From Verrucomicrobiota bacterium (lineage in GTDB: Bacteria > Verrucomicrobiota > Verrucomicrobiia > Limisphaerales > SIBE01), in contig VHDE01000013.1 of NCBI GenBank assembly GCA_016871515.1, positions 518 to 64,517 on the forward strand: a stretch of 64,000 nt of DNA. The letters are read 5' to 3'. The translations under genes were made by a program, and so were the position numbers. The notes below the pieces were generated by a model, which did not search any database, was not told the origin of the DNA, and was given only the letters and a program-made list of their open reading frames with translations. Shown piece by piece: positions 2,974-63,435 of the stretch (its first letter is position 1; every line of letters starts with the position of its first letter).

Positions 2974-3099
2974 CCATGAACCGGCCGCTGTGGTATGGAG
3001 TTCCGGCTTCAGCCGGAGCGATTGCATTGCGCAAAATCTGTTTAGGCGCCAGCAAATGCTGCCGCCTAAAGGCGCGACTACATACCGGGAGGTTCATGG
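2974..3099. repeat. MITE/REP-like element bounded by CCATGAACC...GGTTCATGG (126 bp)
   Basis: Same termini as the other copies. Internal hairpins are ccggcttcagccgg and gccgcctaaaggcg. It closely matches the reverse complement of the 126-bp copy at 23486-23611. Confidence 0.75.
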
Positions 3100-3135
3100 A
3101 ACAGGGCACGTGCAGCTGAAATTGACGGGTTAAGG

Positions 3136-9503: not shown

Positions 9504-9610
9504 GTCTGCGCATTATCCTAAGGGGCAGTTGAACCGCGAACAAACACTATGCTCTTTATCGCAATAGATTTCCGGATAGGCAGGGCAGGCGCTGCTGCCT
9601 TCCGGTTTAG

Positions 9611-9746
9611 CGTAGCGCAGACTTTCAGTCTGCTGTATCGCAGAATTGTATTCTGCGGATCGTCCGCAAGTTCGAGCGTCCTGGAATGTGCGGACGGTAT
9701 GCCGATTGCAAATCGGCGATACAGCAGACTGAAAGTCTGCGCTACG
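9611..9746. repeat. 136-bp REPIN (inverted REP pair), 'gcagaCtttcaGtctgc' variant
   Basis: It has perfect 30-bp terminal inverted repeats, cgtagcgcagactttcagtctgctgtatcg and cgatacagcagactgaaagtctgcgctacg. Each arm carries a 7-bp-stem hairpin preceded by GTAG. Internal hairpins are cgcagaattgtattctgcg and ccgattgcaaatcgg. Confidence 0.85.
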
Positions 9747-9879
9747 ACGAAGGCAAGCGCGCTAACCATGTGGGCCGCGCTTCCGGCAAACCAGTGCTAG
9801 CAGATGCGAAACCCGAATGAGCACTCTCGGCGAGCCTCCTGGTTTGCTTACGAAATCGCTGCTAATCTTCTTTCATGAA

Positions 9880-23429: not shown

Positions 23430-23485
23430 GCGCGGCCCACGTGCGTCAGGGCAATGGCATTCAACGAACCACGAACTTTCACTTT

Positions 23486-23611
23486 CCATGAACCTCCTGG
23501 TATGTAGTCCCGCCTTTAGGCGGCAGCATTCGCTGGGAGCGAAACGGGCTTTGCGGATTGCAATTGCACCGGCTGAAGCCGGGACTACGTGCCCCAACAG
23601 TCGGTTCATGG
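23486..23611. repeat. MITE/REP-like element bounded by CCATGAACC...GGTTCATGG (126 bp)
   Basis: Same 9-bp termini as the other copies. Its reverse complement aligns along its full length with the copy at 2974-3099. Confidence 0.75.
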
Positions 23612-29772: not shown

Positions 29773-29954
29773 AGCTGAAACTAAAGTGCGGTGATCGGAA
29801 AAAGCAAGACCGCTGTTCCCGATAGTTTTGGTTCTCGCAAGAAATGGCCATTTGCATTTGAAAGACCTGTGCGATTCTTTCCTGTTGCTGCGGTGCGTAG
29901 TCCCGGCTTCCGCTCAATGCCTTTCGTTAATTCAAGGCCGTGTGGCAAATGGTT

Positions 29955-30156
29955 GTCCTGAAGGGACAACGTGAAAATAGCCCGGCGTTTCAACGCCGGG
30001 AACCGAATCGCCCGAGACGTAAGTCCCGAAGGGACGGTTGAATTGCATGGCAAGGGTGAACGGTTCAACCGTCCCTTTCGGGACTCTCGTGTTCATCGGC
30101 CCAACCCGGCGTTGAAATTGAAACGCCGGGCTATTTTCACCGTGTCCCTGCGGGAC
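29955..30156. repeat. ~200-bp palindromic MITE-like element
   Basis: The left half gtcctgaagggacaacgtgaaaatagcccggcgtttcaacgccggg...gtcccgaagggacggttgaa mirrors the right half ttcaaccgtccctttcgggac...cccggcgttgaaattgaaacgccgggctattttcaccgtgtccctgcgggac. Confidence 0.65.
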
Positions 30157-30186: not shown

Positions 30187-30276
30187 AGGCTTCAGCCGGT
30201 GCGGCTGCAATGCGCAATTCCGTTTCGCTGCCAGCAAATGCTGCCGCCTCAAGGCGGGACTGCATGCCGGGAGGTG
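30187..30276. repeat. degenerate copy of the CCATGAACC-family element (lacks intact termini)
   Basis: The segment aggcttcagccggtgcggctgcaatgcgcaattccgtttcgctgccagcaaatgctgccgcctcaaggcgggactgcatgccgggag aligns with the interior of the copies at 2974 and 23486. Confidence 0.5.
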
Positions 30277-38232: not shown

Positions 38233-38235
38233 CGT

Positions 38236-38371
38236 CGCAGCGCAGACTTTCAGTCTGCTGCATGGCAGAATGGCGATCGGGATGCCGCCCGCACTTTCCA
38301 GGACGCTCGAACTGCCGGGCGATTCGCAGAATGCAATTCTGCCATGCAGCAGACTGAAAGTCTGCGCTGCG
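38236..38371. repeat. 136-bp REPIN, 'gcagaCtttcaGtctgc' variant
   Basis: It has perfect 30-bp terminal inverted repeats, cgcagcgcagactttcagtctgctgcatgg and ccatgcagcagactgaaagtctgcgctgcg. It lies between the peroxidase stop and the next gene start. Confidence 0.85.
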
Positions 38372-38423
38372 ATGAAGACAAACGCCCTAGACACGCAAGG
38401 ACGGGCACACTTCGGCAAAGCGT

Positions 38424-46702: not shown

Positions 46703-48100
46703 CTAGGCCACAATACCACCAATCGGATTGCCCTCCGCGATCATGACAGGTCGCTGCCCGACAGCATAAACTTCGGTGTGCGGGTCGATCCCCAGAAGAT
46801 AATAAATTGTCGCCGCTAAATCTTCCGGACGAACCGGATCCTTCGTTGGAAGCGAAGCCGTTTTGTCCGACTCGCCGAAAACGAATCCTCGCTTCACTCC
46901 GCCGCCCGCCAGCAACACCGTATAACAATCGGGCCAATGATCGCGGCTGGCCTTTTCGTTGATCTTCGGCGTGCGCCCAAACTCGCCAGTCCACACCACC
47001 AGCGTTGTATCGAGCAATCCGCGCTGGTCGAGTTCCTCAAGCAACGTCGGCAACGTTTGATCTGTCATCGGGAGATGATACTTCTCCATGATCGGAAACA
47101 TCTTCTTTCCGTTATTCCCATGCGTATCCCAGCCACTGCCCACATCGCCTCCGATGTTTGGCGAAAAGTAAACCGTGACGAACTTTGTGCCGGCTTCTAC
47201 CAGCCGACGAGCGAGCAAACAACTCTGTCCGTAGGGCGTTCGTCCGTAGCTGTCGCGAACTGCGTCCGATTCTGCCGAAAGATTAAACGCCTCGCGCAGT
47301 TTGGGTGAATCGAGCATGGCCAGCGCCTTCTCGTAATAGGCATCCAGGCCGCGCGCCTGCGCCGAATGACTCAGCAAGCGCGACTGGCTATCAATGATTT
47401 TCTGGATCGACCGCCGATGCATGAGCCGCTCGTAAGAAATATTCGCGGGCAAGCTTAGTTCGGGCAGTTTGAAATCCGGTTTGTTCGGGTCGCGCGTGAT
47501 AAGCAACGGGTCATGCACCTTGCCGAGAAAGCTCGCCGCCTGACCCGGCGTTACGGTGCCGTCCCCAATAACCCACGGCAATGCGACGGAAGTCGGAATC
47601 GCTCCGACGACAGGTGCTAAGCGATCCACTACCGATCCCAACGCCGGAAAAAGGTCTGGAGAATCCCGCAACGTGATATCATCCACTGGCGGCGCATGTC
47701 CCGTGAGTGCATAGTACGACGCCGGGTTGTGGTTCTTCATGTGATGATGAACCGAACGAATCAGCGTGACCTTATCCGTTACCTTCGCCAGACGCGGCAA
47801 ATGCTCGCTAATCGCAATGCCATCGGCATTCGTGGCGACCGGTTTGTGCAATCCACGAATGCCCTCCGGCGCCTCCGGCTTCATATCGAACATGTCGATA
47901 TGACTCGGCCCGCCGAATTGATAGAGGAAGATTACCGACTTCGTGCGCGCTTTGAGGGTTGGCTTGGAATTGTTCGCCTCGGCTTGCAAAAGTTTGGGCA
48001 AACTCAATCCCAGAAGCCCAAGACCGCCGACCTTCAGCGCGTGACGCCGCGACATCGCGTGAAAAGCTGGACAAGCGAAGGAATGTGTCATCGAATTCAT
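46703..48100 (-). CDS. DUF1501 domain protein (sulfatase-like fold, Tat signal)
   Basis: 465 aa. Motifs: MSRRHALKVGGLGLLGLSL, SVIFLYQFGGPSHIDMFDMKPEAP, WDTHGNN, TGEFGRTPKIN..SRDHW. Confidence 0.85.
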   Translation of the reverse strand: MNSMTHSFACPAFHAMSRRHALKVGGLGLLGLSLPKLLQAEANNSKPTLKARTKSVIFLYQFGGPSHIDMFDMKPEAPEGIRGLHKPVATNADGIAISEHLPRLAKVTDKVTLIRSVHHHMKNHNPASYYALTGHAPPVDDITLRDSPDLFPALGSVVDRLAPVVGAIPTSVALPWVIGDGTVTPGQAASFLGKVHDPLLITRDPNKPDFKLPELSLPANISYERLMHRRSIQKIIDSQSRLLSHSAQARGLDAYYEKALAMLDSPKLREAFNLSAESDAVRDSYGRTPYGQSCLLARRLVEAGTKFVTVYFSPNIGGDVGSGWDTHGNNGKKMFPIMEKYHLPMTDQTLPTLLEELDQRGLLDTTLVVWTGEFGRTPKINEKASRDHWPDCYTVLLAGGGVKRGFVFGESDKTASLPTKDPVRPEDLAATIYYLLGIDPHTEVYAVGQRPVMIAEGNPIGGIVA

Positions 48101-48395
48101 CTCAGCCTCGGTTCAGTCGTCGGTAGCTGCGCGTTTAAACGCGCAGGCAAACTTAGCATCGAAACATTATCATCACCAACCCAGTTCAACAAAGCTCAAA
48201 TTGAAGTCTCTAATTGGCGGGTTTGATTGAATTGAAAAACTCGACGGAATTTGATCCCGGCTGACTCCTTCATCTGCTTGTGCCACGGAAAGTTTAGTTT
48301 TGTTGCGCGCCCTGCCAACCCCTCGGCTGTGACAATGTTGGAGACTTCGATTGCAGCACCTGTCCGTCGTGAAACAGCTGCGTTGGCGTTTGAAT

Positions 48396-50777
48396 TCATC
48401 TACGAAAGACAAAGTCTTTTGAATTGAGCAAGCCCCACAAAATATCTTCGAACTCCGCTCGGCGATCCTTCGTTGCCTCGAGCGCTGCCAAAAGGCCCTC
48501 TCGTTCTTCGGGCATGGGCGGGCGAGTGAGGGCTGTCCAAAAAAATTCCTCCAGGATTTCGCCGTTTGACTTATCAGCAGCCAGGAGGCGGCTGACACGA
48601 TTCTCCTTTTCCGCCAGCAATCCGTTGATGGCTGAACCACTGATCATTTGAAAGGCCTGGCTCATATTGCATTCGCAGGACCGTTCGGTGTCGGTTGTCA
48701 ACAGCCGCGGGGGTTTTCCGAACATTTCCAAGAATTGATCGAGTTGATTGGATCGCCGCTTGCCTTTGCTCTCGGGACGCACGCCGGGTAATTGCGCGGC
48801 GCGCATTCCAACGGGATAGCTCGCAAATCGGAGCGGGACGCCTGTTACTTGGCTTTGGCAATCCAGCAGTTGTTCTGCGCCCAAGCGGCGGGTAAGCGTT
48901 CGTGAGAAATTGATGTCATCGGCGCCGTTCGTGTTGTTCGGTTCGAAAGACAATTGATAGACGCGCGAATTCATGATCAGCCGAATGATGTGGCGAACAT
49001 CATGATTATGCTCGACGAAGTCTTTGGCCAGCGCGTCGAGCAATGCGGGATGCGACGCAGGATTTGTGGCTCGAAAATCGTCGGGCGGATCGACCAGGCC
49101 TCGGCCCATCAAATGAAACCAGATGCGGTTGACCTGAACGCGGGCGAACAGGGTGTTGTTGGTGCTCGTAAGCCACTCGGCCAGGACTTCGAGGCGGTCG
49201 GGTTCGTGATGCGTGATCCGTGATCCGTGATCCGTGATCTGTGAAGTTAGTCCTCGCTGGTCGGCGGTGGCGCCGAGGAAGCGAGGTTGAGCGTCCTTGC
49301 TGGTGCGGGGGTTCTTTAGGGAACCTGAGCGCGGCGCGAAGACGATTTGTTCGCCGTTCCATTCGTGTTTGTCGCTGCCAATCTCACGCTTGTTCTCGAT
49401 AATCTTATAGCCAACCCGCCCGAAGGCGGCAGCCCAATCGTAGTAATCGTCCTGAGTCCAGCGGTCGGATGGATGATTGTGGCACTCGGCGCATTGCAGG
49501 CGCGCACCGAGAAACACCTGGGCCGTCGCCTTCGCTCGCGAGGCGGGATCGCGATTGGGACGGTAATAGTTGGCGGCGGGATTCTGGTACGTGCTGCCGC
49601 GTGCGCTAATAAGTTCGCGAACGAATTGATCGAGCGGCTTGTTTTCGGCGACACTTTGGCGAATCCAGTGATGAAAAATCTGAACGCCTTTCTGGTCGAG
49701 CGAATGGGCTTCGACTCGCAACAGGTCAGCCCACTTGAGCGCCCAGAAGTCGGCAAACTCCGGTCGATCAAGCAACTGGTCAATAAGCCGCTCTCGTTTG
49801 CCGAAGACCAAACTCTCCATAGCAGCCGACGTGAGGAAGCTCTGATCCGGCGCCGCGTTGGTGCTCGAAGGCTGAGCCTCCTGGCGTCGGCTGCTACGAA
49901 TAGCTGGCACAACGAACGCGCGCGCTTCATCGGCCGTTGGCAGAATGCCAAGCAAATCGAGATACGCTCGTCGCATGAACACTTCATCCGAAGCTAATTC
50001 CGAAGGATTCATTCGCAGCGTCCGAAGCTTCACAAAGATATGGTCGTCGATGTAATTCTGGCGCGGCGTGTCCATCCACGTGAATCCCGGTCGGGCTGGG
50101 ATAAATGCGACTCGAACCGGTTCCTGACAATGCAAGTAGCGAACCAGAATTGTGGTCTCGCCCAGGCCTGCGCGTTGCACTTCGCCCGTCGCGCTCACTT
50201 TCGCGAACGGGTTCGAGGCTTCATAAACTGCGAAGTTGGTTATGTCTCGAACCGAGCCGTCGGAAAACTTCGCCTGGACTTGCAGTTGGAATCGATCATC
50301 GGGATCGATCAAGTTTCGCTCGCCCGGCGCCACCGCGATACCCTGCAGTTTGGGCGACGAACTCACGTCGTCCCGCATGCCTTCAGCGATCCAATTTCGA
50401 AGCGCTTGATAGAGCTCTGAATCTTTTCGAAAACGCAAGCCGCCCTCATGAGCCAACTCTGTGGTCGGCTTCAACAGAATAAGACTTTGTTCCGGATCGA
50501 GCAGGTTGGCGCGGCGACCAAACAACTCGCGTGTTAGCGTTTGGTGATCCGCGTCTGGATCCTGCCCGCGGAGGGAAAGTTTGAATCCGCCCTTGCCGTT
50601 CTTGTTGCCATGACATGTGCCGGCGTTGCAACCGGCTTTCGAAAGCACCGCCATGACATCGTTCCGGAACGAAACCTCAGCGGCTCCGATGCCGTTGCAA
50701 GCCCCAACGAAGCACGCGAGCAGCAGCCAACAGACGCCTCGAGTCAATGGTCGATTGTTGGACCGTCGTGTAAGCAC
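48396..50777 (-). CDS. DUF1549/DUF1553 (PSD1-like) protein with Big_2-like domain
   Basis: 793 aa. Motifs: VLSKAGCNAGTCHGNKNGKGGFKLSLRG, FADFWALKWADLLRV, LGARLQCAECHNHPSDRWTQDDYY, VNRIWFHLMGRGLVDPPDDF, FGKPPR....ER. It is the typical partner of DUF1501. Confidence 0.85.
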   Translation of the reverse strand: MLTRRSNNRPLTRGVCWLLLACFVGACNGIGAAEVSFRNDVMAVLSKAGCNAGTCHGNKNGKGGFKLSLRGQDPDADHQTLTRELFGRRANLLDPEQSLILLKPTTELAHEGGLRFRKDSELYQALRNWIAEGMRDDVSSSPKLQGIAVAPGERNLIDPDDRFQLQVQAKFSDGSVRDITNFAVYEASNPFAKVSATGEVQRAGLGETTILVRYLHCQEPVRVAFIPARPGFTWMDTPRQNYIDDHIFVKLRTLRMNPSELASDEVFMRRAYLDLLGILPTADEARAFVVPAIRSSRRQEAQPSSTNAAPDQSFLTSAAMESLVFGKRERLIDQLLDRPEFADFWALKWADLLRVEAHSLDQKGVQIFHHWIRQSVAENKPLDQFVRELISARGSTYQNPAANYYRPNRDPASRAKATAQVFLGARLQCAECHNHPSDRWTQDDYYDWAAAFGRVGYKIIENKREIGSDKHEWNGEQIVFAPRSGSLKNPRTSKDAQPRFLGATADQRGLTSQITDHGSRITHHEPDRLEVLAEWLTSTNNTLFARVQVNRIWFHLMGRGLVDPPDDFRATNPASHPALLDALAKDFVEHNHDVRHIIRLIMNSRVYQLSFEPNNTNGADDINFSRTLTRRLGAEQLLDCQSQVTGVPLRFASYPVGMRAAQLPGVRPESKGKRRSNQLDQFLEMFGKPPRLLTTDTERSCECNMSQAFQMISGSAINGLLAEKENRVSRLLAADKSNGEILEEFFWTALTRPPMPEEREGLLAALEATKDRRAEFEDILWGLLNSKDFVFRR
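49206..49240. repeat. heptanucleotide tandem repeat (gtgatcc)n inside the DUF1553 CDS
   Basis: The run reads gtgatgc gtgatcc gtgatcc gtgatcc gtgatct, with 3 perfect and 2 imperfect units. It is translated as ...ITDHGSRITHH... Confidence 0.7.
49820..49896. repeat. REP-like inverted repeat embedded in-frame in the DUF1549/1553 CDS
   Basis: The arm tagcagccgacgtgaggaagctc (49820-49842) matches the reverse complement of gagcctcctggcgtcggctgcta (49874-49896) in 20 of 23 positions. It encodes ...SSRRQEAQPSSTNAAPDQSFLTSAA..., a low-complexity stretch inside otherwise conserved sequence. Confidence 0.5.
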
Positions 50778-50869: not shown

Positions 50870-53800
50870 CTAACTTGCCTTGCGGAAGGCGCGGCTCGCG
50901 GCGCCGAATGCAGCCAGTACAACAAACACGCCGATGAGGATCGACAGGCGCAGCCGCCAGGAAGCGGTCCTTGCCGCGACCGCCTCCAGTTCAATCCTCA
51001 AGTCCGCCCATGGATCCACGAGCACGGCACGCTTGAAGGTGAGGAGCCGGCCTTGTTCGGGAATAGACGCGCGCATCGCAACGGGACTGCTGACGGCGGC
51101 ATCCTGCTGCTGAATGAGTCGTTCGGCCAAGCGCATGAAAGCGGCGTTTTCATCCGCGGTGTTGCGATCGATAATCTCCTTCGCGTCCTGTTGGGTGTAG
51201 GTAACTCCTTCGCGACTCCGCAGGTCACGCACCCTTGCGCCCAGTGCCGTGGTGTCACCAGCTACTGCCGCTTGGCGGACGTTCAGCCCGACCAAAGCCT
51301 GTTGCAGCTTCAGATTGTGCAATTGAACGCGAGCATCTTCATTGAACGCGTTGTCATGCTGGCTCAAGCCGTAGGCGGCCTGGAATGCGCGTCGCGCCTG
51401 CTGCGGGTCGCCGCGTTCGAGCAGCGTATTGCCCATAGCCAGGAGTTCCTCGGCTTCTTTCGTTTTGCCGCGTTGCAGAGCAGCCTCATTTTGAAGATAA
51501 GTCTGCAAATCAACCGCGGCGCTCCGAGGCGCCATTTGGTCCTGTTGCAACTGCAGGGTCCCCGCCCAATCTTTGACGCGCCATTTCTCACTGAGATAGA
51601 CCCGCCATGTGATGTCCTCCAGCGGCAAATCAAATTTCGGGGCGAGCAGGTCAAGATCGAGCGAGCGCCTGCGAGATGAACCAATCTTGCTGCTGTAAAA
51701 TATTTCCACTGGGATCGCTTTCCCGGAGCGCGCTTGCGGTTCGAGCGGAACCAAAATGCGGTCCCCTTCGCGCCACGGCCAAACGCCGCTTTGATTCACG
51801 AACGCAAACCAAAAACGCGCGTCTGCTGGTAACGTGAGATAAAGCAAACGTTTGTCGCCTGGCAACATCTCGAGACGCGCTTGCGTGAGCATAACACCAT
51901 CATCGGAAATGACGGAGGTCAGCGTGACATTGTTGACGCGAGCGGGCAAAAGCTTCGCGGCTTCGTGGCGGTCCAGTTTCAATGGCAATTGAAACGACGG
52001 TTCAACGAGACGAAACGCGAAATTGGCCGAGACTGCTGACAAGTCCTGCTGCAGCGCGCGGGGAATGCTTTGCCACTCGGTCGTTTGCAGCGAAGCCGGC
52101 AGCGCATCGATGCGGACTTGTTGACGGCCTCGGGCTTGCACTGTGACGAAGCCGCGTTGCAGGTTCACGTCCGCCGTTTGGACGCCACGCAGAACGGTCT
52201 CGGTCGCGGTGTCTGCGACGGCAGTCTGATAAGTGACTTGCAACAAGTATCGACCAATCACACGCCGATGCAGCTTGATTTCCCACGCTTGCAAATTATT
52301 CGTCACCCCGCCTGCAATTGGGAGGAAACCGGAAACTTGGTCGCCTTGAAAACGGACGCTTCCGGCATTGGTCGGCAAGAAAACGCGGAACGCTTTCAAG
52401 CCCGTGTTCTCGATCTGGTATTGCAAGTTTGCCCCAACGTTTACCAGGGCTTCACTGACAGTTGCATGTTGCAGGCTCGTCACCTGAATCCACGGATCGA
52501 CTTGTTCGATGTCCAGCGCCAGATTCCACGGAACCTGCAGAATGCGGAAGGCGAGCACGCCCTTCTGCTGGATGCCTGTCTTTTGCGGGTCCAGCTGTGT
52601 CACGCCATTGCGCGTGCCCGGTTGCAGCCGCATGCCTTGGTCCGGCACAATCAAGAGAGTTCCGCGCTGCTTGCTGGCTTCGCGCAAAACGAGCTGTGGA
52701 ACGGCCCAATTGTTCGTGGTCTTAACACCGGCTCCCGACAAACTGATGGCGAACTGTTGCGGCCCGGCCGTCTTGCCGCGCAAGTGCAGCGTGATAATCC
52801 GTCCAGCATCAGCGCGCAACTCGGTCCAATGGCTCAACGCTTGGCCACTGATCGACTCCACATCGAGCGCGCCGGGCAACACAAAACTCAGGCGGAAAAT
52901 GCCCGCGCGCGTAATATCGACCGACAGGTTCGACGCAAGAACTGTCCGGTCTTCGCCCAATGATACGGTGTCCTGTGTTTCGACGCGCACGTCCGGCTCG
53001 ACTGGAGAGGCTCGGACCGAAACCGTAGCTCCAGTCTCCGTGTATCGAAACGCGCGGCGGACGGTCAGCTCAGGAATCTGCGCCTGGAGCATTTGCGGTG
53101 CGCTAACGGGATAATCTTCGAGATTGATCGGGGAGAGATTGCCTGCGTTCACGGAATCGAGTTGAACTTCGCGGCCCGTCGCAATACCAAGCAAACCGAT
53201 CTGCCCCGCCGCCTGCTCGATAGAAAGAAGTCCAATCGATTGTTCAAAGGGCAATGGGCCGGTAGGAACTTGTGAGCGGATCAGCAGCGTGAAAGGACGC
53301 GACTGCGCCGGGTTCAAATTCACGCGGAGCCTGCGCGTGTCGGGATCGAAACGCCAGAGCGACGCGATCGATTTTGGTGGCAGTGGTTGGTTGGTGGCGG
53401 CATCGGTCCCGGGTGTAGGATCGATTGCGCTGACATCCGTGATCGTCGCGCCGGTTGGGACGTTAAAGACAAGCTCCGTAAGTTCTCCCTGGGCCGGGCG
53501 AATGACGGCGTGATGCGCACCTTCAATTACACCCGCAGTCGGGACGTAAAGTTGAGAGATTTCAGCATAGAAGACCGCTCTTTCCCGCTTCACATCACGG
53601 CTGCGCGGGCGCCAGTTGATCCAGGCGTCGTTCACGGGCGCGAGGACGAGGTTCGCCATGGTGTTGCTGTTGGAAGTCGTGCGTTCGATGGAAGCGGCCT
53701 GCGCTGAGAATACGTCCACATCAAGATTGGCGAGGGTCAACCGAAGCGGATTGATCAACCCATGTTGCGTGGGGAGAACGAAGCCGCTTTCGCTAAGCTT

Positions 53801-56800
53801 GGCCGTCACGTGGATTTGGTATCGCAATTCGACATCGAACGCGCCGGTTTCCAAAGCTAGCAACTGATGCGCACGCCTGCCGTTGGCCGGAGCCTGAATC
53901 AGTCTGAGTGCGTTCGTCGGATAAACAACGCTCGTCAATACGGCCGGCTCGAACAGGAGAGGAAGCGTCTGGTTTTTCTCGGCCGTCCAATGGATCTTGG
54001 CCGTGCCGAGCGCGAACCTTTCTTCGACGCGAATTTCCTGCGCGACCGATTCGGCCAGCGCCGGCGCTCTGGGAAATGGAGTAGGGGTGTAAAGGGCGGC
54101 GGGAACTGGATTGGCTTGCGGATTGGCCGTCTGCGCCTGAGCAACCAGCAGCGTGCCATCGTAACGCAGAGTTCCACTCTGCTGTATCGCAGACTTGTAG
54201 TCTGCAGCGAGTCCGAGAGCCGAGACATTCCCGCGAGATCGAGCGTTCTGCCGACTGAAAGTCGGCGATACAGCAGAGTGAAACTCTGCGTTACGAGGCG
54301 CGCTCGAATGCGCAATGACCGGCGGCGCGGATTCAGACCACAGTGACAGCAGGGTTCCAATGAGCAGCGATGCCACAGCCGGCGCCGGGCCGCTGTCCGG
54401 CGGAGTCAGCGCCGCGGACTTTGGTTTTCTTGGCAGTTGCCAAAGCCGGCGCAGAGCCGGAATCAAAGTGTGGAGCAGTAAGAAGAGGAGAATAATTACG
54501 ATGAAACTCGGCGCTCCGCCGGGTGCCCGCAGTCCCGCCCAGGCCACAAGCGTCCATCCGAACAGCCATCCGACCGCCGTGAACCACATGCGATTCGTGA
54601 TCCATCCATAAACCCAGACCACCAGCGCAAGCAATGCCGGCCATGCGTAGCCAAGGAAACTGAACACCGTGGCTTCAGCTTTGATGTTTGCTACTTCGAC
54701 GTTAAGCCCAGTGCCGGCTTGTTGTACTGGCGCTAGAAACGTTACCTCGCGCGAAACAGCGACGTTCTGCTGCGCGGCCAAGTCACCAAGGCTGATCAGT
54801 GCTGCGATCGCCATAGCCACGGCTATCAGACCCAGGACCGTCCCGAACAGATGGCGCGCGCTGTATCTGTAAACGCCTTCACGCACCGTCCATCGCCAAA
54901 CCACAAGCGCAATCCCAACTAATAACAGCGCAGCAATCAGCGAAACCAGAGCTTGCGCAGCGTCCAGACCGCTGAATGCTTTGTTCAACTGGGCGAAGCC
55001 AGAAATATCGGCGACACCATCCACAGGCGTCAGTGAACCCCGGCGATAGATCAAACGTTGTCCTGCGTCTGGCGCAAGTTTCCATTCTGCGAGCATCACG
55101 GGTGCGGCGACGATTGGTGTGGCGATGGCCACCCGTTTGGGGGTTGTTGACCGCGAAGCCAACTTAACGTCCACGGCCAGGACCGCGTTGGGATCCGCTC
55201 GCTGCGGCAAGGGAATCATGTTCGCTTGTCCATCCAGGACCGGCACGACCGGAGCGCCGTTCACTGTTGCGGACCACAATTGCGTTCCAGCCGGGAGCGT
55301 CACTCGGAAATGTGAATTGCCGCGATTCTTGACGAAATAATGCGCGTCCGTCAGGACTTGTCCTTCTTTCGAAATTCGTGTCAACAGCGACGCCCGGTCA
55401 ACGACTTGGCTGAGAGAATCGCCCTGGACCAGCGGGTTGAGCGCGAGCCGCAAATTGAATGGCCGCGATGTGTAACGATAAGCCGCGAGAACTGGCGCAT
55501 CGAAGAAGAGTCGATATTCCGGAGGCACTTCACCAGTTTCGAGCGGCAACAATCCTGGCGACACATCCACCGGATTGACCTGAAATTGATACGCGCTAAT
55601 CACCAGCGTGTGGCCTTGTTCCGATTGCGCGTCGAGCGGGCGCGCTCCGGTAAATGCGAGCGTTTCGCCTTGCGCTCGAAACGGCCGCTCATAGGTTGCG
55701 AGCAGCGTATAAGCGCCGGACACGGGCGAGTGCAATTGCACGACGTAGCCATTGGTCGCTCTTTGCCAATTGCGAATGTCTTTGCCGATAAACTCGACGT
55801 TGAAGTATTCGTTCGAGAGCTCGATCCTCAGCGTTGATATCGGCGCGCCTGAAACCAGATAGTGCATCACGCTGCTGCCGTAAGCGATGCCTTCGCCGAT
55901 GGAAAAAAGATGGAAAGCATCCGCTTGCACCGTCTGCGGCAAACGCTCCACGCGCAACGTTGCCTGCCAAGCCGGTTCGCTGAGTCGAAATGCCAACTGA
56001 ATGCCAGCGACCTTGCGCGGAAAGAACGCCGTTGCGATCTCGGTCAATGCTTGGGTCCTGTCGGGTGTGATGCGGAAACCCGCATCCGCCGAGACGCCCA
56101 AATGGCCACGCACCGATTTCGCTCGGGAAATCTCGATCCGTGGCAACACCCAATTAGTTTGGCCCAGCGCTTGATGGCGTTCGACGCGGAGCTGAACGAT
56201 TTGCCGGCCGGAAACAGGTTGGCCATACACCAGACGCAGTTCGGCGTCTGGATCGCCCTCCGGCTCGCGCAGAAAATAATCGCTCAGGCCGGACGCGTTC
56301 AGGCGCGCGATGGCATATCCTTTTGGGACGCGCATCAGCAACTCCCGCATGGGCGCTTCGCGGATGTCCAATTCAAACTCCGCGTCGATGGCGAGTTCGT
56401 TCTCGGCGTGATGATATGCGAGCACTTCGGAGACGCTGAGTTCAGGCAAGATTTGGTCCGCTTGAATTCGCAGGGAGAATTCGCCGCCAGAAAAGCGATA
56501 AGCAAACCGCTGGCTGCCGCCAGTCGCAAAGAGCGTTCTCGTGACGTCCGTTTCCGGAAATTGTTCGGGAGAAATCTGAGAAAGTCCGGCGGCTTGGACA
56601 ACTTCGAGGCGCACCGCACCTTCGTTGAGTATCCGAACATAACCAGCTAAACGGGTCGCGCCTTCAGGCCGTAGTTGCATGGCATCGACGGCTTGGGGAA
56701 GCGCCCCGATGGATGTCTGCATTTGAACTTGGAGCGCGAACTGATCTTTCTGGGGTTGATTAAACTGAATGACGAGGCGCCGGCCAGCAGAGTTCGCAAT

Positions 56801-58174
56801 AGGTTCAACATTCCATGCGAGCACATGAGCGCCTTGGACACGTGTGACTTCGCCGGCGCCGCGCAACAACAAGGCGACGCGGTTCAACTCGCCTTGCATG
56901 ACTTTGAAATCAAGCAACGCCATTTGCCGCATGAGCCCGGGACTGACGCCGATCTGAGAAAGCATTTCGGCCGCGTAGAACAGTTTGCCCTCGGCTTCGC
57001 GCCGAGCTTCTTTCCAGGAAAGTTTCACCGCGCCGTCCGCCGGAAGGTAACCCACGAATTGGCTGCCAGCGCGTTCGGGCCGAGCCGCCCCGGGAAACTC
57101 GAACTGAGTATCGGCGATCAATCCTTCGAGAGCGATCGGTTGCAATGCACTCGGTGCAACGCGGAAATCGACTGAGTTCCAACCATTGGTTTGGCTAACT
57201 GCGGCCTTGAACTTGAGCTGAATGGGAAATTCGCCCGACCGATCGAACGCAATGATGAAGCGGCCTTGCTCGAACCGGAGACGCCAATGTGGATGCGTTT
57301 TCAGATCGGTCAAAGCAATGTTCCCTTGCAACAGCGCTATCGAACCGCCGCGCGGATTTTTGATGCGCGCGTTGGCGGTCAAGACAAAGCTTACCGTTTG
57401 GTCGCTGAGTTGCCCGCTCAGCTTAAAGTCGCGCAACACAACTCGGCGCGCTTCGGGGTCCGCGATCGTAATGCGGAGCGGGATATGGTAGGGCGAGCCG
57501 TGGAAACGGAAGGCGAGCGGATCTGGACTATCCGGCTTGGCCTCGATGCGCAATGATGATGGCAAGAATTTGGGATCGATGGGCGCCAGGCCGGTGGGGC
57601 TGTCGGGCTGGACATCGAGGTCCGGCGTCACTTCAATCGTCACGTAACCGTTGAATAACGCTGGACTGGATGGAGTGAGGGTTAAGGCGGTTAATGGATT
57701 CGTCCATGTGCGGAGATCGCGTTCGGCCGAAATCGTGACCGAAAGTTGCGTGATTGGTTTGTCGCTTTTGCGAGGGCGAAGGATCAGCGTGCGCACGCCG
57801 TTGGTTTCTTGGCGGATGCTCCAATCTTGCAGCAACTCGCCGGTGACCTGGCGTATTTCACCTTCCCCGCTGATCGTGAGTGGGAGTTCTTTGGGCTCGC
57901 CTTGAAGAATGTCGAAGGTGGCTGCGATGGAATGGGCGATTTTTTCGCGCGAGACTTTGATCGAGTGCTGGAGAGCGGTGGCGTAAATAAGCTTGTCTTT
58001 CTCGCCGGACAAACCGCTGAGCACCGCTTCGATGATCAGCCGCGCCCTCCCGTCTTCGACGCCGCCGTTGATGGAAAGGTTTCTTAATTCTGCGGTCGCG
58101 CCCGAAACGTTGTTCGCGGTCAGGATCGATAACGCAAGGAGGATGGATATGGGGATGCGTACGGGAATGTTCAT
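50870..58174 (-). CDS. giant hypothetical membrane protein (2434 aa): two paralogous beta-rich halves, each ending in TM segment(s), joined across a REPIN
   Basis: Uninterrupted ORF with the N-terminal signal peptide MNIPVRIPISILLALSILTANNVSG. The first half ends in ~5-6 TM helices. The second half ends in a TPR-like segment plus one TM helix (LSILIGVFVVLAAFGAA). The halves share blocks such as VTLPAGTQLWSATVNGAPVVPVLDGQANMIPLP and LTLPADARFWFAFVNQSGVWPWREGDRILVPLEP. It may really be two genes. Confidence 0.6.
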   Translation of the reverse strand: MNIPVRIPISILLALSILTANNVSGATAELRNLSINGGVEDGRARLIIEAVLSGLSGEKDKLIYATALQHSIKVSREKIAHSIAATFDILQGEPKELPLTISGEGEIRQVTGELLQDWSIRQETNGVRTLILRPRKSDKPITQLSVTISAERDLRTWTNPLTALTLTPSSPALFNGYVTIEVTPDLDVQPDSPTGLAPIDPKFLPSSLRIEAKPDSPDPLAFRFHGSPYHIPLRITIADPEARRVVLRDFKLSGQLSDQTVSFVLTANARIKNPRGGSIALLQGNIALTDLKTHPHWRLRFEQGRFIIAFDRSGEFPIQLKFKAAVSQTNGWNSVDFRVAPSALQPIALEGLIADTQFEFPGAARPERAGSQFVGYLPADGAVKLSWKEARREAEGKLFYAAEMLSQIGVSPGLMRQMALLDFKVMQGELNRVALLLRGAGEVTRVQGAHVLAWNVEPIANSAGRRLVIQFNQPQKDQFALQVQMQTSIGALPQAVDAMQLRPEGATRLAGYVRILNEGAVRLEVVQAAGLSQISPEQFPETDVTRTLFATGGSQRFAYRFSGGEFSLRIQADQILPELSVSEVLAYHHAENELAIDAEFELDIREAPMRELLMRVPKGYAIARLNASGLSDYFLREPEGDPDAELRLVYGQPVSGRQIVQLRVERHQALGQTNWVLPRIEISRAKSVRGHLGVSADAGFRITPDRTQALTEIATAFFPRKVAGIQLAFRLSEPAWQATLRVERLPQTVQADAFHLFSIGEGIAYGSSVMHYLVSGAPISTLRIELSNEYFNVEFIGKDIRNWQRATNGYVVQLHSPVSGAYTLLATYERPFRAQGETLAFTGARPLDAQSEQGHTLVISAYQFQVNPVDVSPGLLPLETGEVPPEYRLFFDAPVLAAYRYTSRPFNLRLALNPLVQGDSLSQVVDRASLLTRISKEGQVLTDAHYFVKNRGNSHFRVTLPAGTQLWSATVNGAPVVPVLDGQANMIPLPQRADPNAVLAVDVKLASRSTTPKRVAIATPIVAAPVMLAEWKLAPDAGQRLIYRRGSLTPVDGVADISGFAQLNKAFSGLDAAQALVSLIAALLLVGIALVVWRWTVREGVYRYSARHLFGTVLGLIAVAMAIAALISLGDLAAQQNVAVSREVTFLAPVQQAGTGLNVEVANIKAEATVFSFLGYAWPALLALVVWVYGWITNRMWFTAVGWLFGWTLVAWAGLRAPGGAPSFIVIILLFLLLHTLIPALRRLWQLPRKPKSAALTPPDSGPAPAVASLLIGTLLSLWSESAPPVIAHSSAPRNAEFHSAVSPTFSRQNARSRGNVSALGLAADYKSAIQQSGTLRYDGTLLVAQAQTANPQANPVPAALYTPTPFPRAPALAESVAQEIRVEERFALGTAKIHWTAEKNQTLPLLFEPAVLTSVVYPTNALRLIQAPANGRRAHQLLALETGAFDVELRYQIHVTAKLSESGFVLPTQHGLINPLRLTLANLDVDVFSAQAASIERTTSNSNTMANLVLAPVNDAWINWRPRSRDVKRERAVFYAEISQLYVPTAGVIEGAHHAVIRPAQGELTELVFNVPTGATITDVSAIDPTPGTDAATNQPLPPKSIASLWRFDPDTRRLRVNLNPAQSRPFTLLIRSQVPTGPLPFEQSIGLLSIEQAAGQIGLLGIATGREVQLDSVNAGNLSPINLEDYPVSAPQMLQAQIPELTVRRAFRYTETGATVSVRASPVEPDVRVETQDTVSLGEDRTVLASNLSVDITRAGIFRLSFVLPGALDVESISGQALSHWTELRADAGRIITLHLRGKTAGPQQFAISLSGAGVKTTNNWAVPQLVLREASKQRGTLLIVPDQGMRLQPGTRNGVTQLDPQKTGIQQKGVLAFRILQVPWNLALDIEQVDPWIQVTSLQHATVSEALVNVGANLQYQIENTGLKAFRVFLPTNAGSVRFQGDQVSGFLPIAGGVTNNLQAWEIKLHRRVIGRYLLQVTYQTAVADTATETVLRGVQTADVNLQRGFVTVQARGRQQVRIDALPASLQTTEWQSIPRALQQDLSAVSANFAFRLVEPSFQLPLKLDRHEAAKLLPARVNNVTLTSVISDDGVMLTQARLEMLPGDKRLLYLTLPADARFWFAFVNQSGVWPWREGDRILVPLEPQARSGKAIPVEIFYSSKIGSSRRRSLDLDLLAPKFDLPLEDITWRVYLSEKWRVKDWAGTLQLQQDQMAPRSAAVDLQTYLQNEAALQRGKTKEAEELLAMGNTLLERGDPQQARRAFQAAYGLSQHDNAFNEDARVQLHNLKLQQALVGLNVRQAAVAGDTTALGARVRDLRSREGVTYTQQDAKEIIDRNTADENAAFMRLAERLIQQQDAAVSSPVAMRASIPEQGRLLTFKRAVLVDPWADLRIELEAVAARTASWRLRLSILIGVFVVLAAFGAASRAFRKAS
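54160..54295. repeat. 136-bp REPIN, 'gcagaGtttcaCtctgc' variant, inside the giant ORF
   Basis: Terminal arms are cgtaacgcagagttccactctgctgtatcg and cgatacagcagagtgaaactctgcgttacg, with internal hairpins gcagacttgtagtctgc and ccgactgaaagtcgg. It is translated in the ORF frame as RNAEFHSAVSPTFSRQNARSRGNVSALGLAADYKSAIQQSGTLRY. Confidence 0.85.
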
Positions 58175-58190
58175 GAGCAGTGTTCTGGAA

Positions 58191-58219
58191 ATCGCGATAA
58201 CCGAAAAAACAAGCGCTCC
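58191..58219 (-). promoter_or_regulatory. candidate ECF-type promoter (GGAGCG-N17-CGCGAT) upstream of the giant ORF
   Basis: The minus-strand sequence reads ggagcg cttgttttttcggttat cgcgat, ending 16 nt before the ATG at 58174. It resembles the GGAGCA-N16-CGTCTA box upstream of the ECF sigma gene at 63315. This is pattern match only. Confidence 0.2.
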
Positions 58220-58223
58220 GGAC

Positions 58224-58454
58224 CGTAACGCAGAGTTTCACTCTGCTGTATCGCCGACTTGCAGTCGGCAGAGCACTCGACCTTGCGGAAACTTCTCGAT
58301 TTGGCGGACGCGCTGCAGATTGGAAATCTGCGATACGGCAGAGTAAAACTCCGCGCTACGATCTGGCACTCGAATTTGTGGGAGCTTCTCGATTGTCGGA
58401 CACGCCGCAGAGTGAAACTCTGCGATACAGCAGAGTGAAACTCTGCGTTACGCC
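58224..58454. repeat. 231-bp REP cluster (one 137-bp REPIN plus a partial REPIN with tandem hairpins), left flank of RAYT
   Basis: By eye it is identical base-for-base to 59243-59473. It starts cgtaacgcagagtttcactctgctgtatcg and ends gcagagtgaaactctgcgatacagcagagtgaaactctgcgttacgcc. Confidence 0.9.
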
Positions 58455-58536
58455 GCTGGCCGCGACATTGAGGTTGCAAATAACCGAGTCGACGCGCTAG
58501 CCTCCGCACGTGTTTCCCAAGGAGGAAAATCCGCGG

Positions 58537-59247
58537 ATGGATCGAGTGCGCTTTGAGCTTCGTTCGGACGGGATCAAACCGGAGGAAACAAACCCGTTGC
58601 GTTCCGGTGTTCATACACGAGGCTATCTGCCACACGTCAAGCGCGAAGGCGCGCGTTACTTTGTGACATTTCGCCTCGCCGATTCGTTGCCCAAAGAGGT
58701 CTTGCTCAAGTATCAGGCGGAGCGCGGGGAGCGGTTGCAGCTTTTCTATGCGCAGCACGACGCCGCGAAAGGCCCGGGGACAGCCCTCCCGAAGCAAGAG
58801 ATGCTGGAAGAAATCGAGCGCGAGTACAATCGCAAGGTCGAGCGTTATCTTGATCAAGGCTGCGGGGAATGCTGGCTGAGACGACCCGAAATTGCGGACT
58901 TGGTCACTGAAGCCGTGCGATTCTTTGATGGCAAGCGATATTGGCTGGATGCTTGGGTTATCATGCCAAATCACGTGCATGGTGTCTTGTGGCCGGCGCC
59001 GAACCACTCGTTGAGCCATATCCTGCAAAGCTGGAAAAGCTACACAGCTCGGCAGGCGAACAAAGTTCTCAATCGGACGGGACATCCATTTTGGCAACGA
59101 GAGGCATTCGATCATTGGATTCGCGATGATGAGGAACATGCGCAGTGCTGTCGTTATGTGACAAACAATCCGGTAAAGGCTGGCCTGTGTGCAACGCCGC
59201 GGGACTGGAAATGGAGCAGCGCGTGGGGTGATGGCCAGCCATCGTAA
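58537..59247 (+). CDS. REP-associated tyrosine transposase (RAYT; IS200-like Y1/HUH family)
   Basis: ORF 58510..59247 with ATG at 58537, preceded by aaggagg (58519-58525). HUH motif in WVIMPNHVHGVLWP. Downstream blocks: SWKSYTARQAN, FWQREAFDHWIRD, YVTNNPVKAGL, W.WSS. N-terminal block GYLPHV. The TAA stop lies inside the right REP cluster. Confidence 0.8.
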   Translation: MDRVRFELRSDGIKPEETNPLRSGVHTRGYLPHVKREGARYFVTFRLADSLPKEVLLKYQAERGERLQLFYAQHDAAKGPGTALPKQEMLEEIEREYNRKVERYLDQGCGECWLRRPEIADLVTEAVRFFDGKRYWLDAWVIMPNHVHGVLWPAPNHSLSHILQSWKSYTARQANKVLNRTGHPFWQREAFDHWIRDDEEHAQCCRYVTNNPVKAGLCATPRDWKWSSAWGDGQPS

Positions 59248-59473
59248 CGCAGAGTTTCACTCTGCTGTATCGCCGACTTGCAGTCGGCAGAGCACTCGAC
59301 CTTGCGGAAACTTCTCGATTTGGCGGACGCGCTGCAGATTGGAAATCTGCGATACGGCAGAGTAAAACTCCGCGCTACGATCTGGCACTCGAATTTGTGG
59401 GAGCTTCTCGATTGTCGGACACGCCGCAGAGTGAAACTCTGCGATACAGCAGAGTGAAACTCTGCGTTACGCC
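59243..59473. repeat. 231-bp REP cluster, right flank of RAYT
   Basis: Identical to 58224-58454, at an offset of 1019 bp. Confidence 0.9.
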
Positions 59474-59525
59474 TTTGGGCAGTTTCTATGCGTGGGATGA
59501 ATTGGTTCGGCCTGTTCATCTCGAT

Positions 59526-62576: not shown

Positions 62577-62581
62577 GGCGC

Positions 62582-62717
62582 CGTAACGCAGAGTTTCACT
62601 CTGCCGTATCGCAGAGTTTCACTCCGCGGCGCGCCCGCAATTCCAAAGCCCACCGACAGATCGAACGCTCTGCCGACTGCAAATCGGCGATGCGGCAGAG
62701 TGAAACTCCGCGTTACG
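62582..62717. repeat. 136-bp REPIN, 'gcagaGtttcaCtctgc' variant, between the ECF sigma and anti-sigma genes
   Basis: Terminal arms are cgtaacgcagagtttcactctgccgtatcg and cgatgcggcagagtgaaactccgcgttacg, with 2 arm mismatches. It fills almost all of the 151-bp sigma/anti-sigma spacer. Confidence 0.85.
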
Positions 62718-62727
62718 GGGTTTTCCG

Positions 62728-63315
62728 TCATGGGATAACTCCGGTTTTGGCCAATTCGTCAGCGATGCTTTTCAGCGCATGATGCAGAAGGTAACCGACG
62801 TGACCCACGGTGAGACCGGTCCGGGCGCTGATTTCTTTATAGGACAAACCTTCGTTGAACTTCAGCCGGATCAACTCGCGGCTGCGTTCGTCGAGTGTCT
62901 CCAAACTGAGCCGCACCAGACCGATGCCTTCCCAGCGCGCGATTTGTTCGTCCGGCAGCGGCTGAGGATCGGTGATTTCTGGTTCGGCAGATGCGGGACG
63001 GTCTTCCGACGATGAAGCTGAAGTCTGCGCGAGCGGGATAATCTTGCCGGACTGTCGCCGTTGGTTTAGCGCGAGATTGTGCACCGTGCGATAGAGCCAT
63101 CGCCTTGGCTCGCGCACTTGATCAAACTGTGCATGCAATTTCATGAAAGCGTCTTGAACAACATCTTCAGCGAGACTCAATTCCTGAACAAAGCGCAGGG
63201 CATAACAGAGGAGCGGCGATTCCAGAGCGGCAAAAAGCTCCTCAATCGTTTCCGGTCGTGGTGATGCCACACTAACGTCTTCTCTTCGGCCCACGGCCAT
63301 GCCTGGGTGAGTCAT
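62728..63315 (-). CDS. RNA polymerase ECF-type sigma-70 factor
   Basis: 195 aa. Region 2 is EDVVQDAFMKLHAQ...WLYRTVHNLALNQRR. The region 4 HTH is RSRELIRLKFNEGLSYKEISARTGLTVGHVGYLLHHALKSI. Confidence 0.85.
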   Translation of the reverse strand: MTHPGMAVGRREDVSVASPRPETIEELFAALESPLLCYALRFVQELSLAEDVVQDAFMKLHAQFDQVREPRRWLYRTVHNLALNQRRQSGKIIPLAQTSASSSEDRPASAEPEITDPQPLPDEQIARWEGIGLVRLSLETLDERSRELIRLKFNEGLSYKEISARTGLTVGHVGYLLHHALKSIADELAKTGVIP

Positions 63316-63406
63316 TTCATTCTATTCGCGATTTCCATTTAACTGCCTTAGTCGCAACGCTGGCAGTTGCCGGTCTCACTAGTATGACACGCGAGAGCAG
63401 CAATTC

Positions 63407-63435
63407 TTAGACGATTTCTTCGGGAATTTTGCTCC
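63407..63435 (-). promoter_or_regulatory. candidate autoregulated ECF-type promoter (GGAGCA-N16-CGTCTAA)
   Basis: The minus-strand sequence reads ggagca aaattcccgaagaaat cgtctaa, about 90 nt upstream of the ATG at 63315. It is one mismatch from the generic ECF -35 GGAAC, with a CGTC-type -10. This is pattern match only. Confidence 0.25.

Follow-up and report, generated by a model that had tools for sequence, protein, structure and literature searches.

In group ECF289 of the extracytoplasmic function (ECF) sigma factors, the sigma factor gene is followed by a gene for an anti-sigma factor with extracytoplasmic von Willebrand factor A (vWA) and DUF3520 domains, according to the classification paper (PMC7826278). 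A sigma/anti-sigma pair that fits this domain description, the likeness being one of description, lies in a 64,000-nucleotide (nt) stretch of contig VHDE01000013.1 from a Verrucomicrobiota metagenome-assembled genome (MAG), here called the window. Further downstream on the same strand is an open reading frame (ORF) of 2434 amino acids (aa), the giant gene, whereas no giant third gene is mentioned in that paper's main text. For DUF3520, YfbK and anti-sigma factors of the vWA type, the searchable literature yielded the ECF classification paper alone and no functional study. Our analysis shows that the giant gene is the third and only conserved non-regulatory member of a cassette of sigma factor, vWA anti-sigma factor and giant protein, and that its product derives from two paralogous genes that lay in tandem and became fused, each of which encoded a signal peptide, a beta-sandwich chain of about 810 aa and a membrane anchor. 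This architecture and the linkage to the sigma/anti-sigma pair are near certain; the function proposed for the protein is graded below.

Fifty-two genomic loci with more than 6 kb of upstream DNA were compared. A gene for a vWA/YfbK_C anti-sigma factor stands directly upstream of the giant gene in all 52, an ECF sigma factor gene is present in 50, and 49 loci have the three genes in the same order; one in four of the gaps between the vWA and giant genes is shorter than 60 nt. The trio is also found in five of five loci of relatives at 24% identity or more (one of them at 25%), always with different flanking genes, and in other genomes the end of the sigma gene shares 4 nt with the start of the anti-sigma gene, for example in locus L001 (5322, 5325). 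An earlier note on this DNA, made from the sequence alone, had placed the ORF downstream of an ECF/anti-sigma-vWA pair and suggested examining the conservation of the neighbourhood. Both upstream genes are what it took them to be and the trio co-occurs strongly across Verrucomicrobiota, but the upstream position does not mean adjacency here, as a transposase gene and two repeat arrays intervene.

The sigma factor has regions 2 and 4 only and scores 80.3 bits with the TIGR02937 sigma70-ECF model (cut-off 42.9). The anti-sigma factor consists of an N-terminal anti-sigma region, one transmembrane (TM) helix (aa ~119-141), a stretch resembling Wzz/PCP proteins, and vWF_A, VWA and YfbK_C domains. 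Its vWA domain has an intact DxSxS motif of the metal ion-dependent adhesion site (MIDAS), DNSGS at aa 679. The NCBIfam models antisigma (5e-6) and EpsF (3.9e-8) match it below their cut-offs, and the homolog in L087 carries a zf-HC2 domain. The weak Wzz/PCP matches fall in the periplasmic part at aa 424-551 (EpsF at the value just given, CspC 0.0026, far under the cut-offs), and hint at an oligomerising coiled-coil base beneath the vWA head. Directly downstream of the giant gene are a PSCyt2/PSD1 (DUF1549/DUF1553) gene and a DUF1501 gene (46703-50777, minus strand), a pair typical of Planctomycetes and Verrucomicrobia; it is not conserved beside the cassette elsewhere, and is present near the distant relative L090.

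The giant protein truly belongs to a large family without a name, found in Verrucomicrobiota, and is not an oddity of one genome. It is identical to GenBank MBM3832676.1, 'hypothetical protein FJ403_05270' of a Verrucomicrobia MAG, and has more than 100 full-length homologs of 2066-2658 aa at 59-73% identity. HMMER, run in full against 1.84 billion cluster representatives, gave 2528 clusters (50% identity) at E ≤ 1e-3 and 596 at E ≤ 1e-30, with the two-module form of 2100-2400 aa retained down to 24% identity. When one genome per GTDB species was scanned with the conserved motif AFNEDARVQLHNLKLQQALVGLN as the search pattern, at least 571 species genomes contained a confirmed relative, with proteins of 2100-2450 aa; the best 80 of these belong by content to Verrucomicrobiota (Chthoniobacterales, Limisphaerales, Verrucomicrobiales and Opitutia). 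Eight of the best 80 records (L008, L045, L054, L066, L067, L070, L073, L075) bear the titles Bifidobacteriaceae, Bifidobacterium, Candidatus Acidoferrum, Candidatus Acidiferrales or Candidatus Sulfotelmatobacter. They contain the verrucomicrobial cassette at 64-68% identity and look like mislabelled or contaminated MAGs.

Domain searches assigned nothing beyond a marginal tetratricopeptide-like signal. Pfam at E ≤ 0.01 gave only TPR_2, a single hairpin with 16.5 bits against a gathering score of 27, and at E ≤ 10 the separate halves of the protein showed no named domain other than this sub-threshold TPR. NCBIfam had no match to the giant protein, and PADLOC none for either half or the vWA protein, which disposes of an anti-phage defence role as far as PADLOC models go. 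Searches of the PDB sequences by phmmer with each half were empty, and a profile of 20 diverse members drew only marginal matches to designed TPR proteins (best E 0.0023). Among 20 diverse relatives, Pfam found only a LysM insert, in two. The view that the protein has no recognisable named domain and is undescribed is thus borne out in Pfam, NCBIfam, PADLOC, the PDB sequences and the searchable literature, and the profile searches that the earlier note had called for place neither half in a characterised family.

The two halves of the protein are sisters. BLASTP aligns them over 640 aa at 22% identity (E 1e-29), and hhalign, with profiles built from 30 relatives, pairs aa ~240-1056 with aa ~1367-2215 over 808 columns (probability 100, E 2e-81). 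Motif blocks common to both are located at aa 957-991 and aa 2112-2147. The evolutionary unit, a signal peptide followed by about 810 aa of beta-sandwich domains and an anchor, is supported by four observations. Firstly, the N-terminal 240 aa are unpaired in half 2, and the region corresponding to aa 27-239 is absent from the giant protein in 24 of the 52 loci (for example L042, 2128 aa). Secondly, the halves occur as two genes in L089 (1220 aa and 1110 aa), where the second has its own Met and a classical signal peptide, starting MNRKFFLPILMLAAAVAGGHA|AP, and in L088 (1257 aa and 1091 aa). Thirdly, in relatives of about 20% identity a gene of its own further upstream encodes the unit a third time, again with a signal peptide (L090 5255-8944, L091 5579-9004; hmmsearch E ~1e-52). 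Fourthly, 66 homologs show the three-part layout of a signal peptide internally, with a basic n-region (RKPKP...), an h-region of 12-15 residues and a c-region with, in many cases, ASA|Q or VSA|Q at its end.

Hydropathy and the AlphaFold model place six helices after half 1 (aa 1072-1096, 1106-1135, 1170-1192, 1196-1216, 1221-1245 and 1264-1282). They also concur that roughly 1050 aa of all-beta structure precede these helices and that a second all-beta stretch, of some 900 aa, comes after them. The sixth hydrophobic segment is probably the former signal peptide of gene 2, and the small-x-small site that follows it, often ASA|Q, may be cleaved by signal peptidase to give two subunits in a 1:1 ratio. 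The earlier description of the protein therefore needs only partial revision. Its two paralogous beta-rich halves with shared blocks are real, and the five or six TM helices closing half 1 are there, the sixth being the signal-peptide-like segment at the old gene boundary. At the end of half 2 the helical region and TM helix stand, but the TPR character comes down to at most one marginal hairpin; the most conserved motif of the family lies in this region, with N2278, D2280 and A2281 invariant or nearly so in 30 sequences down to 24% identity. The frame had been called coding-like throughout, and it is a single open frame of 2434 codons from ATG to stop, of which aa 1288-1339 are a translated repeat and not ancestral protein.

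That repeat is a doublet of repetitive extragenic palindromic (REP) elements, translating as ...RNAEFHSAVSPTFSRQ...ADYKSAIQQSGTLRYD. It lies exactly at the junction of the halves, REPs are usually intergenic, and two-gene versions are present in other genomes, all of which would suit the giant ORF being an artefact of this genome in which a REP open in frame joins two adjacent genes. More than 100 homologs, however, are single ORFs of about 2350 aa, mostly without a junction REP, the fused length is kept down to 24% identity, and the REP-less junction is a continuous linker of 52 aa. The full-length homologs and the continuous linker rule the artefact out for practical purposes, leaving it a very slight chance.

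The operon has been invaded three times by elements mobilised by a REP-associated tyrosine transposase (RAYT), since REPs are found within the giant ORF, around the RAYT gene, and between the sigma and anti-sigma genes. The RAYT gene is antisense to the operon between the anti-sigma and giant genes; it scores above the NF047646 cut-off, is REP-flanked and is accompanied by several palindromic copies, and a RAYT gene occupies the equivalent position in L045 (69% identity) and L086. The intragenic doublet shares its repeat family with 9606-9764, 38233-38389, 58224-58459, 59243-59478 and 62578-62735, giving six REP loci in 64 kb, each an inverted doublet. As RNA it folds with -100.3 kcal/mol, compared with -57.8 ± 4.2 for shuffled sequences (z = -10.1). 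The junction linker has 124 aa here, while its median length among 66 homologs is 52 aa. The L086/P0002 locus carries this element too, in an identical place and orientation, and REP-type peptides occur in this linker in P0002, P0012, P0023, P0064, P0019, P0013 and P0098. Those of P0098, P0013 and part of P0019 belong to a different repeat family, so that at least two families are involved. The linker, disordered and variable in length, tolerates insertion, and its occupation in several lineages marks it as a tolerated landing site. This insertion hot spot is a smaller point than the giant cassette, but more solidly shown.

Several other observations concern the repeats of the window. Two ORFs on the minus strand, 58171-59139 (322 aa) and 59154-59519 (121 aa), are translated REP arrays and RAYT antisense strand; they share the peptide RRNAEFHSAVSQSFTLRR...ADCKSAIQQSETLRY and are almost certainly not genes. 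The doublets at 9606-9764 and 38233-38389, far from the RAYT gene, have arms of 144 nt that are 85% mutually complementary. A second, unrelated palindromic family with the core ...GCCGCCTAAAGGCGG... has at least three copies in both orientations (2974-3101, 23484-23611, 30216-30275), and beside one of them is an Rfam match to the small RNA Acido-Lenti-1 (29954-30000, minus strand; 37.2 bits, gathering score 37).

AlphaFold models of aa 91-1290 (pLDDT 77.8; all beta plus helices) and aa 1340-2434 (pLDDT 80.4) are both chains of beta-sandwiches, with some strands 23 residues long. In Foldseek searches of the PDB, ribophorin I/Ost1 was the top match for each half independently, 6s7t_E for half 1 (E 1.9e-9) and 8b6l_O for half 2 (E 1.5e-8), both with probability 1.00 and with alignments of 410-455 columns that cover nearly the whole target. 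Ribophorin I likewise has a TM helix after its tandem beta-sandwiches. The unit of about 810 aa could on these grounds be a true homolog of the luminal part of ribophorin I/Ost1, acting as a substrate-holding or chaperone scaffold beside a membrane enzyme. The superpositions are poor, however (TM-score 0.20-0.31, root-mean-square deviation 19-23 Å, identity 9-12%), and close behind for both halves come integrin alpha legs, PIGT, mu-adaptin and the N-domains of M1 aminopeptidases, which points to a generic long-stranded beta-sandwich fold. There was no Pfam match to ribophorin I (PF04597), the family profile found no ribophorin in the PDB even at E ≤ 10, and no glycosyltransferase is conserved near the cassette. 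We regard homology to ribophorin I as improbable and read the modelled likeness, to it and to the other folds, as one of fold class only. A TMEM260-like protein O-mannosyltransferase of 1352 aa with a long TPR tail (3136-7194, plus strand; PF11028 9.5e-27) is encoded in the window, positionally unrelated to the cassette.

A bacterial protease trap resembling alpha-2-macroglobulin was also considered, as UniRef labels the homolog from Chthoniobacter flavus (CfE428DRAFT_2824 locus) 'Alpha-2-macroglobulin domain protein' and Foldseek lists human alpha-2-macroglobulin, C5 and TEP1. These matches have probabilities of only 0.16-0.35 and TM-scores of about 0.07, and no alpha-2-macroglobulin or macroglobulin-domain (MG) Pfam model matches at E ≤ 10. 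The helical stretches of the giant protein are TM helices and a short C-terminal region, with no thioester domain. The defining CxEQ thioester motif is absent, as is any cysteine in the 2434 aa, and with no supporting profile match the candidate was rejected as scarcely conceivable.

The lack of cysteine bears on location as well. Against about 20 cysteines expected from neighbouring genes, the giant protein has none and 73 close homologs have 0-7. Together with the signal peptide, the positive-inside loops and the LysM inserts, this suggests a periplasmic protein anchored in the inner membrane; that both halves are periplasmic is drawn from the signal-peptide and anchor layout of each unit. 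The RRLWQLPRKPK loop and the C-terminal RAFRKAS tail would be cytoplasmic. In P0136, one of the two LysM carriers, the peptidoglycan-binding domain lies within half 1 (aa 314-354, E 1.1e-14).

A conserved two-part consensus, TTTCGTCTAAGAAA-N9-C-N2-GTGTC-N-TA, precedes the sigma gene; the short form of this sigma-type promoter is GTCTAAGAAA-N-GTGTC. In the window the -35-like element spans 63404-63413, and the -10-like GTGTC occupies 63386-63390, 71 nt ahead of the sigma ATG, and this site (63382-63417) is the only one in the 64 kb. A position matrix scanned over both strands of 91 loci and a 20-kb segment of the window (1.56 Mb) found 41 sites: 39 before a sigma homolog, two directly before a giant gene (L066, L067) and none elsewhere. 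Metagenome contigs contained 120 exact matches to the motif, 87 of them directly upstream of a sigma homolog, four on contigs too short to judge and 29 in other places; about 12 of the 29 retain the extended consensus and stand ahead of genes for different proteins with signal peptides. Because the sigma-specific motif stands before the sigma gene, the operon looks autoregulated. No second ECF-type promoter before the giant gene was found in the window with the matrix, and a scan for sigma-70 promoters and terminators around the locus gave nothing above shuffled expectation. Expression of the giant gene here presumably has to cross the REP arrays and the antisense RAYT gene, or use an unrecognised promoter. 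Motif-preceded proteins elsewhere (L107/L201, L117/L121/L174/L195, L176, L109, L139) are possible additional regulon members; they include a CarboxypepD_reg-domain protein, a large unknown helical protein, a DUF1559/N-methyl pseudopilin-like protein and small secreted proteins.

We propose that the giant protein is a two-half periplasmic scaffold, at once the output of the sigma factor and the object monitored by the vWA anti-sigma factor, and give this combination a probability of about 0.45. The N-terminal signal peptide would send half 1 (~1050 aa) to the periplasm and five TM helices would anchor it in the inner membrane. After the basic RRLWQLPRKPK loop, which would stay in the cytoplasm, the former gene-2 signal peptide would re-export the chain, so placing half 2 (~1000 aa and the helical region) in the periplasm, anchored there by the final TM helix. 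The halves would be kept at 1:1 either by the fusion itself or by cutting at the internal signal peptide. The two would assemble near the peptidoglycan into a scaffold, the main sigma product, which the vWA/MIDAS head of the anti-sigma factor would bind or monitor; AFNEDARVQL.NLK.QQA, an invariant motif predicted to lie in the periplasm beside the final TM helix, is a candidate for the contact. Loss of or damage to the scaffold, or engagement of a ligand, would free the sigma factor, so that the entire operon is transcribed more strongly, making the cassette a self-monitoring envelope module.

The feedback step, to which we give roughly one chance in three, is where this proposal meets its closest competitor, and it is derived wholly from gene linkage and from analogy with other ECF modules. 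The giant protein might instead be sigma output only, a stress-induced envelope or adhesion protein without a signalling role, while the vWA anti-sigma factor senses something else. This alternative, which differs from scaffold monitoring solely in the feedback step, fits the same linkage and promoter evidence, and we hold it as a tentative possibility. The constancy of the sigma-vWA-giant order down to 25% identity stands against it, being tighter than is usual for a mere regulon member. Several points nevertheless weigh against the combined proposal, two of which also favour the output-only alternative. The relatives of ~20% identity in L090 and L091 have no sigma/vWA pair, so the unit can work without it, and the presence of the motif before other secreted proteins means that the giant protein is not the sole possible target. 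In the window, two REP arrays and an antisense RAYT gene stand between the giant gene and the one sigma-type promoter that could be detected, and with no second motif the expression of the giant gene may be uncoupled or reduced. The internal site VIAHS is weaker than ASA|Q and its cleavage is only predicted. The L088 split may be an assembly frameshift, given the low coverage of that contig.

A bolder version of the scaffold proposal, which we think unlikely, would have a Verrucomicrobiota-specific machine in which a polyprotein is cut at its internal signal peptide into two sister subunits that build a pseudo-symmetric scaffold close to the peptidoglycan, with the integrin-like vWA/MIDAS head clasping the invariant acidic motif NEDARVQL and relaying the mechanical or assembly state of the scaffold to the sigma factor, and with the unit perhaps a prokaryotic relative of the luminal domain of ribophorin I. 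A ribophorin relationship, if true, would add to the eukaryote-like parts of the Planctomycetes-Verrucomicrobia-Chlamydiae (PVC) group. The features on which these proposals draw are collected in Table 1.

Table 1. Positions of the cassette, its promoter and inserted elements, and the parts of the giant protein (aa numbers refer to the giant protein)
Feature	Position	Strand	Basis
ECF-type promoter motif AAATCGTCTAAGAAT-N-GTGTCATAC	63382-63417	(-)	Position matrix from cassette loci
ECF sigma factor, 195 aa	62728-63315	(-)	Sigma70_r2 1.6e-10, Sigma70_r4_2 1.1e-11
REP doublet between sigma and anti-sigma genes	62578-62735	(.)	Families D1, I10, I11, I21
Anti-sigma factor, 1016 aa	59526-62576	(-)	YfbK_C (DUF3520) 9.1e-30, VWA_2 5.7e-16, vWF_A 9.9e-13
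REP array flanking RAYT gene	59243-59478	(.)	D2: 236 nt, 99% identical to 58224-58459
RAYT gene	58510-59247	(+)	NF047646 100.8 bits (cut-off 80), Y1_Tnp 6.9e-7
REP array, ending 50 nt upstream of giant ATG	58224-58459	(.)	Repeat search
Giant ORF, 2434 aa	50870-58174	(-)	ATG start, 0 internal stops
Putative N-terminal signal peptide, aa 1-26 (approximate)	58097-58174	(-)	Hydropathy peak aa 1-19; sequence MNIPVRIPISILLALSILTANNVSGA
N-terminal accessory beta module, aa 27-239	57458-58096	(-)	No counterpart in half 2; hhalign begins at aa ~240
Unit A, ~810-aa beta-sandwich array, aa 240-1056	55007-57457	(-)	hhalign; all-beta AlphaFold model; Foldseek
Five TM helices, aa 1072-1245	54440-54961	(-)	Hydropathy; AlphaFold helices at model positions 982-1155
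Internal signal-peptide-like segment, aa 1242-1290	54305-54451	(-)	n-region RRLWQLPRKPKS, h-region PAVASLLIGTLLSLW, c-region ending VIAHS
In-frame REP palindrome doublet, aa 1288-1339	54159-54313	(-)	Repeat search
Unit B, paralog of unit A, aa 1367-2215	51530-54076	(-)	hhalign; AlphaFold; Foldseek
Periplasmic helical region (predicted), aa ~2223-2370	51065-51508	(-)	AlphaFold helices
Marginal TPR-like hairpin in helical region	51362-51454	(-)	TPR_2 E 0.009
Most conserved motif of the family, AFNEDARVQLHNLKLQQALVGLN, in helical region	51272-51349	(-)	Alignment of relatives
C-terminal TM anchor, aa ~2406-2433, then short basic tail	50876-50959	(-)	Hydropathy and AlphaFold

Some 570 or more verrucomicrobial species devote 7 kb to this protein and keep it at 60-70% identity across orders, yet the family has no name, domain assignment or literature despite a dedicated sigma/anti-sigma pair. 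It offers an entry point to the envelope biology of Verrucomicrobiota and to signal sensing by vWA-type anti-sigma factors, and for such work a promoter motif, defined module limits, an internal signal peptide and naturally split and three-unit variants are now on hand. As a naturally occurring hot spot of REP insertions in frame, the junction linker offers a case of how mobile palindromes become parts of proteins; it also raises the question of what a hairpin of -100 kcal/mol does within a 7.3-kb mRNA.

Rickettsia palindromic elements insert in frame into protein-coding genes and are translated as an extra peptide. The doublet described here resembles them and the RAYT-mobilised REPs and REPINs, being a palindromic repeat in frame within a conserved gene and translated, with a REP-flanked RAYT gene nearby. 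REPs are by definition mostly extragenic, whereas in this family a single linker of a single gene has acquired such elements in several lineages.

For the cassette, the earlier note had been loosely reminded of Bat/aerotolerance loci. Like the Bat operon, the cassette combines a vWA protein with a beta-rich membrane-anchored protein and a TPR-like element, one hairpin here, and a complex of a vWA protein, a BatD-like protein and TPR elements would also suit the weak match of the anti-sigma factor to NCBIfam VWA_BatA_Lepto (5.7e-7). That match has 28.9 bits against a cut-off of 380, however; BatD (PF13584) matches neither half at E ≤ 10; MoxR ATPase and DUF58 genes are absent from the cassette in the window and from six other loci; and the vWA domain here is part of an anti-sigma factor. 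The resemblance was not upheld, and a Bat-type complex is highly improbable.

Other parallels are FecI-FecR-FecA and RpoE-RseA-RseB, in which, as here, a sigma factor and a membrane anti-sigma factor are joined by a conserved third envelope protein in an apparently autoregulated operon. Cell-surface signalling of the FecIRA kind was rejected, as its defining domains are absent: Pfam and NCBIfam detected no FecR, RseB or TonB-dependent transducer domain in the cassette at the loci examined. The third protein is neither a TonB-dependent transducer nor a small periplasmic binder, but a 260-kDa inner-membrane protein with two periplasmic arrays of about 1000 aa each. The giant family is what is new and undescribed, within a system of known kind, an ECF envelope module with a vWA anti-sigma factor that fits the domain description of the catalogued group ECF289.

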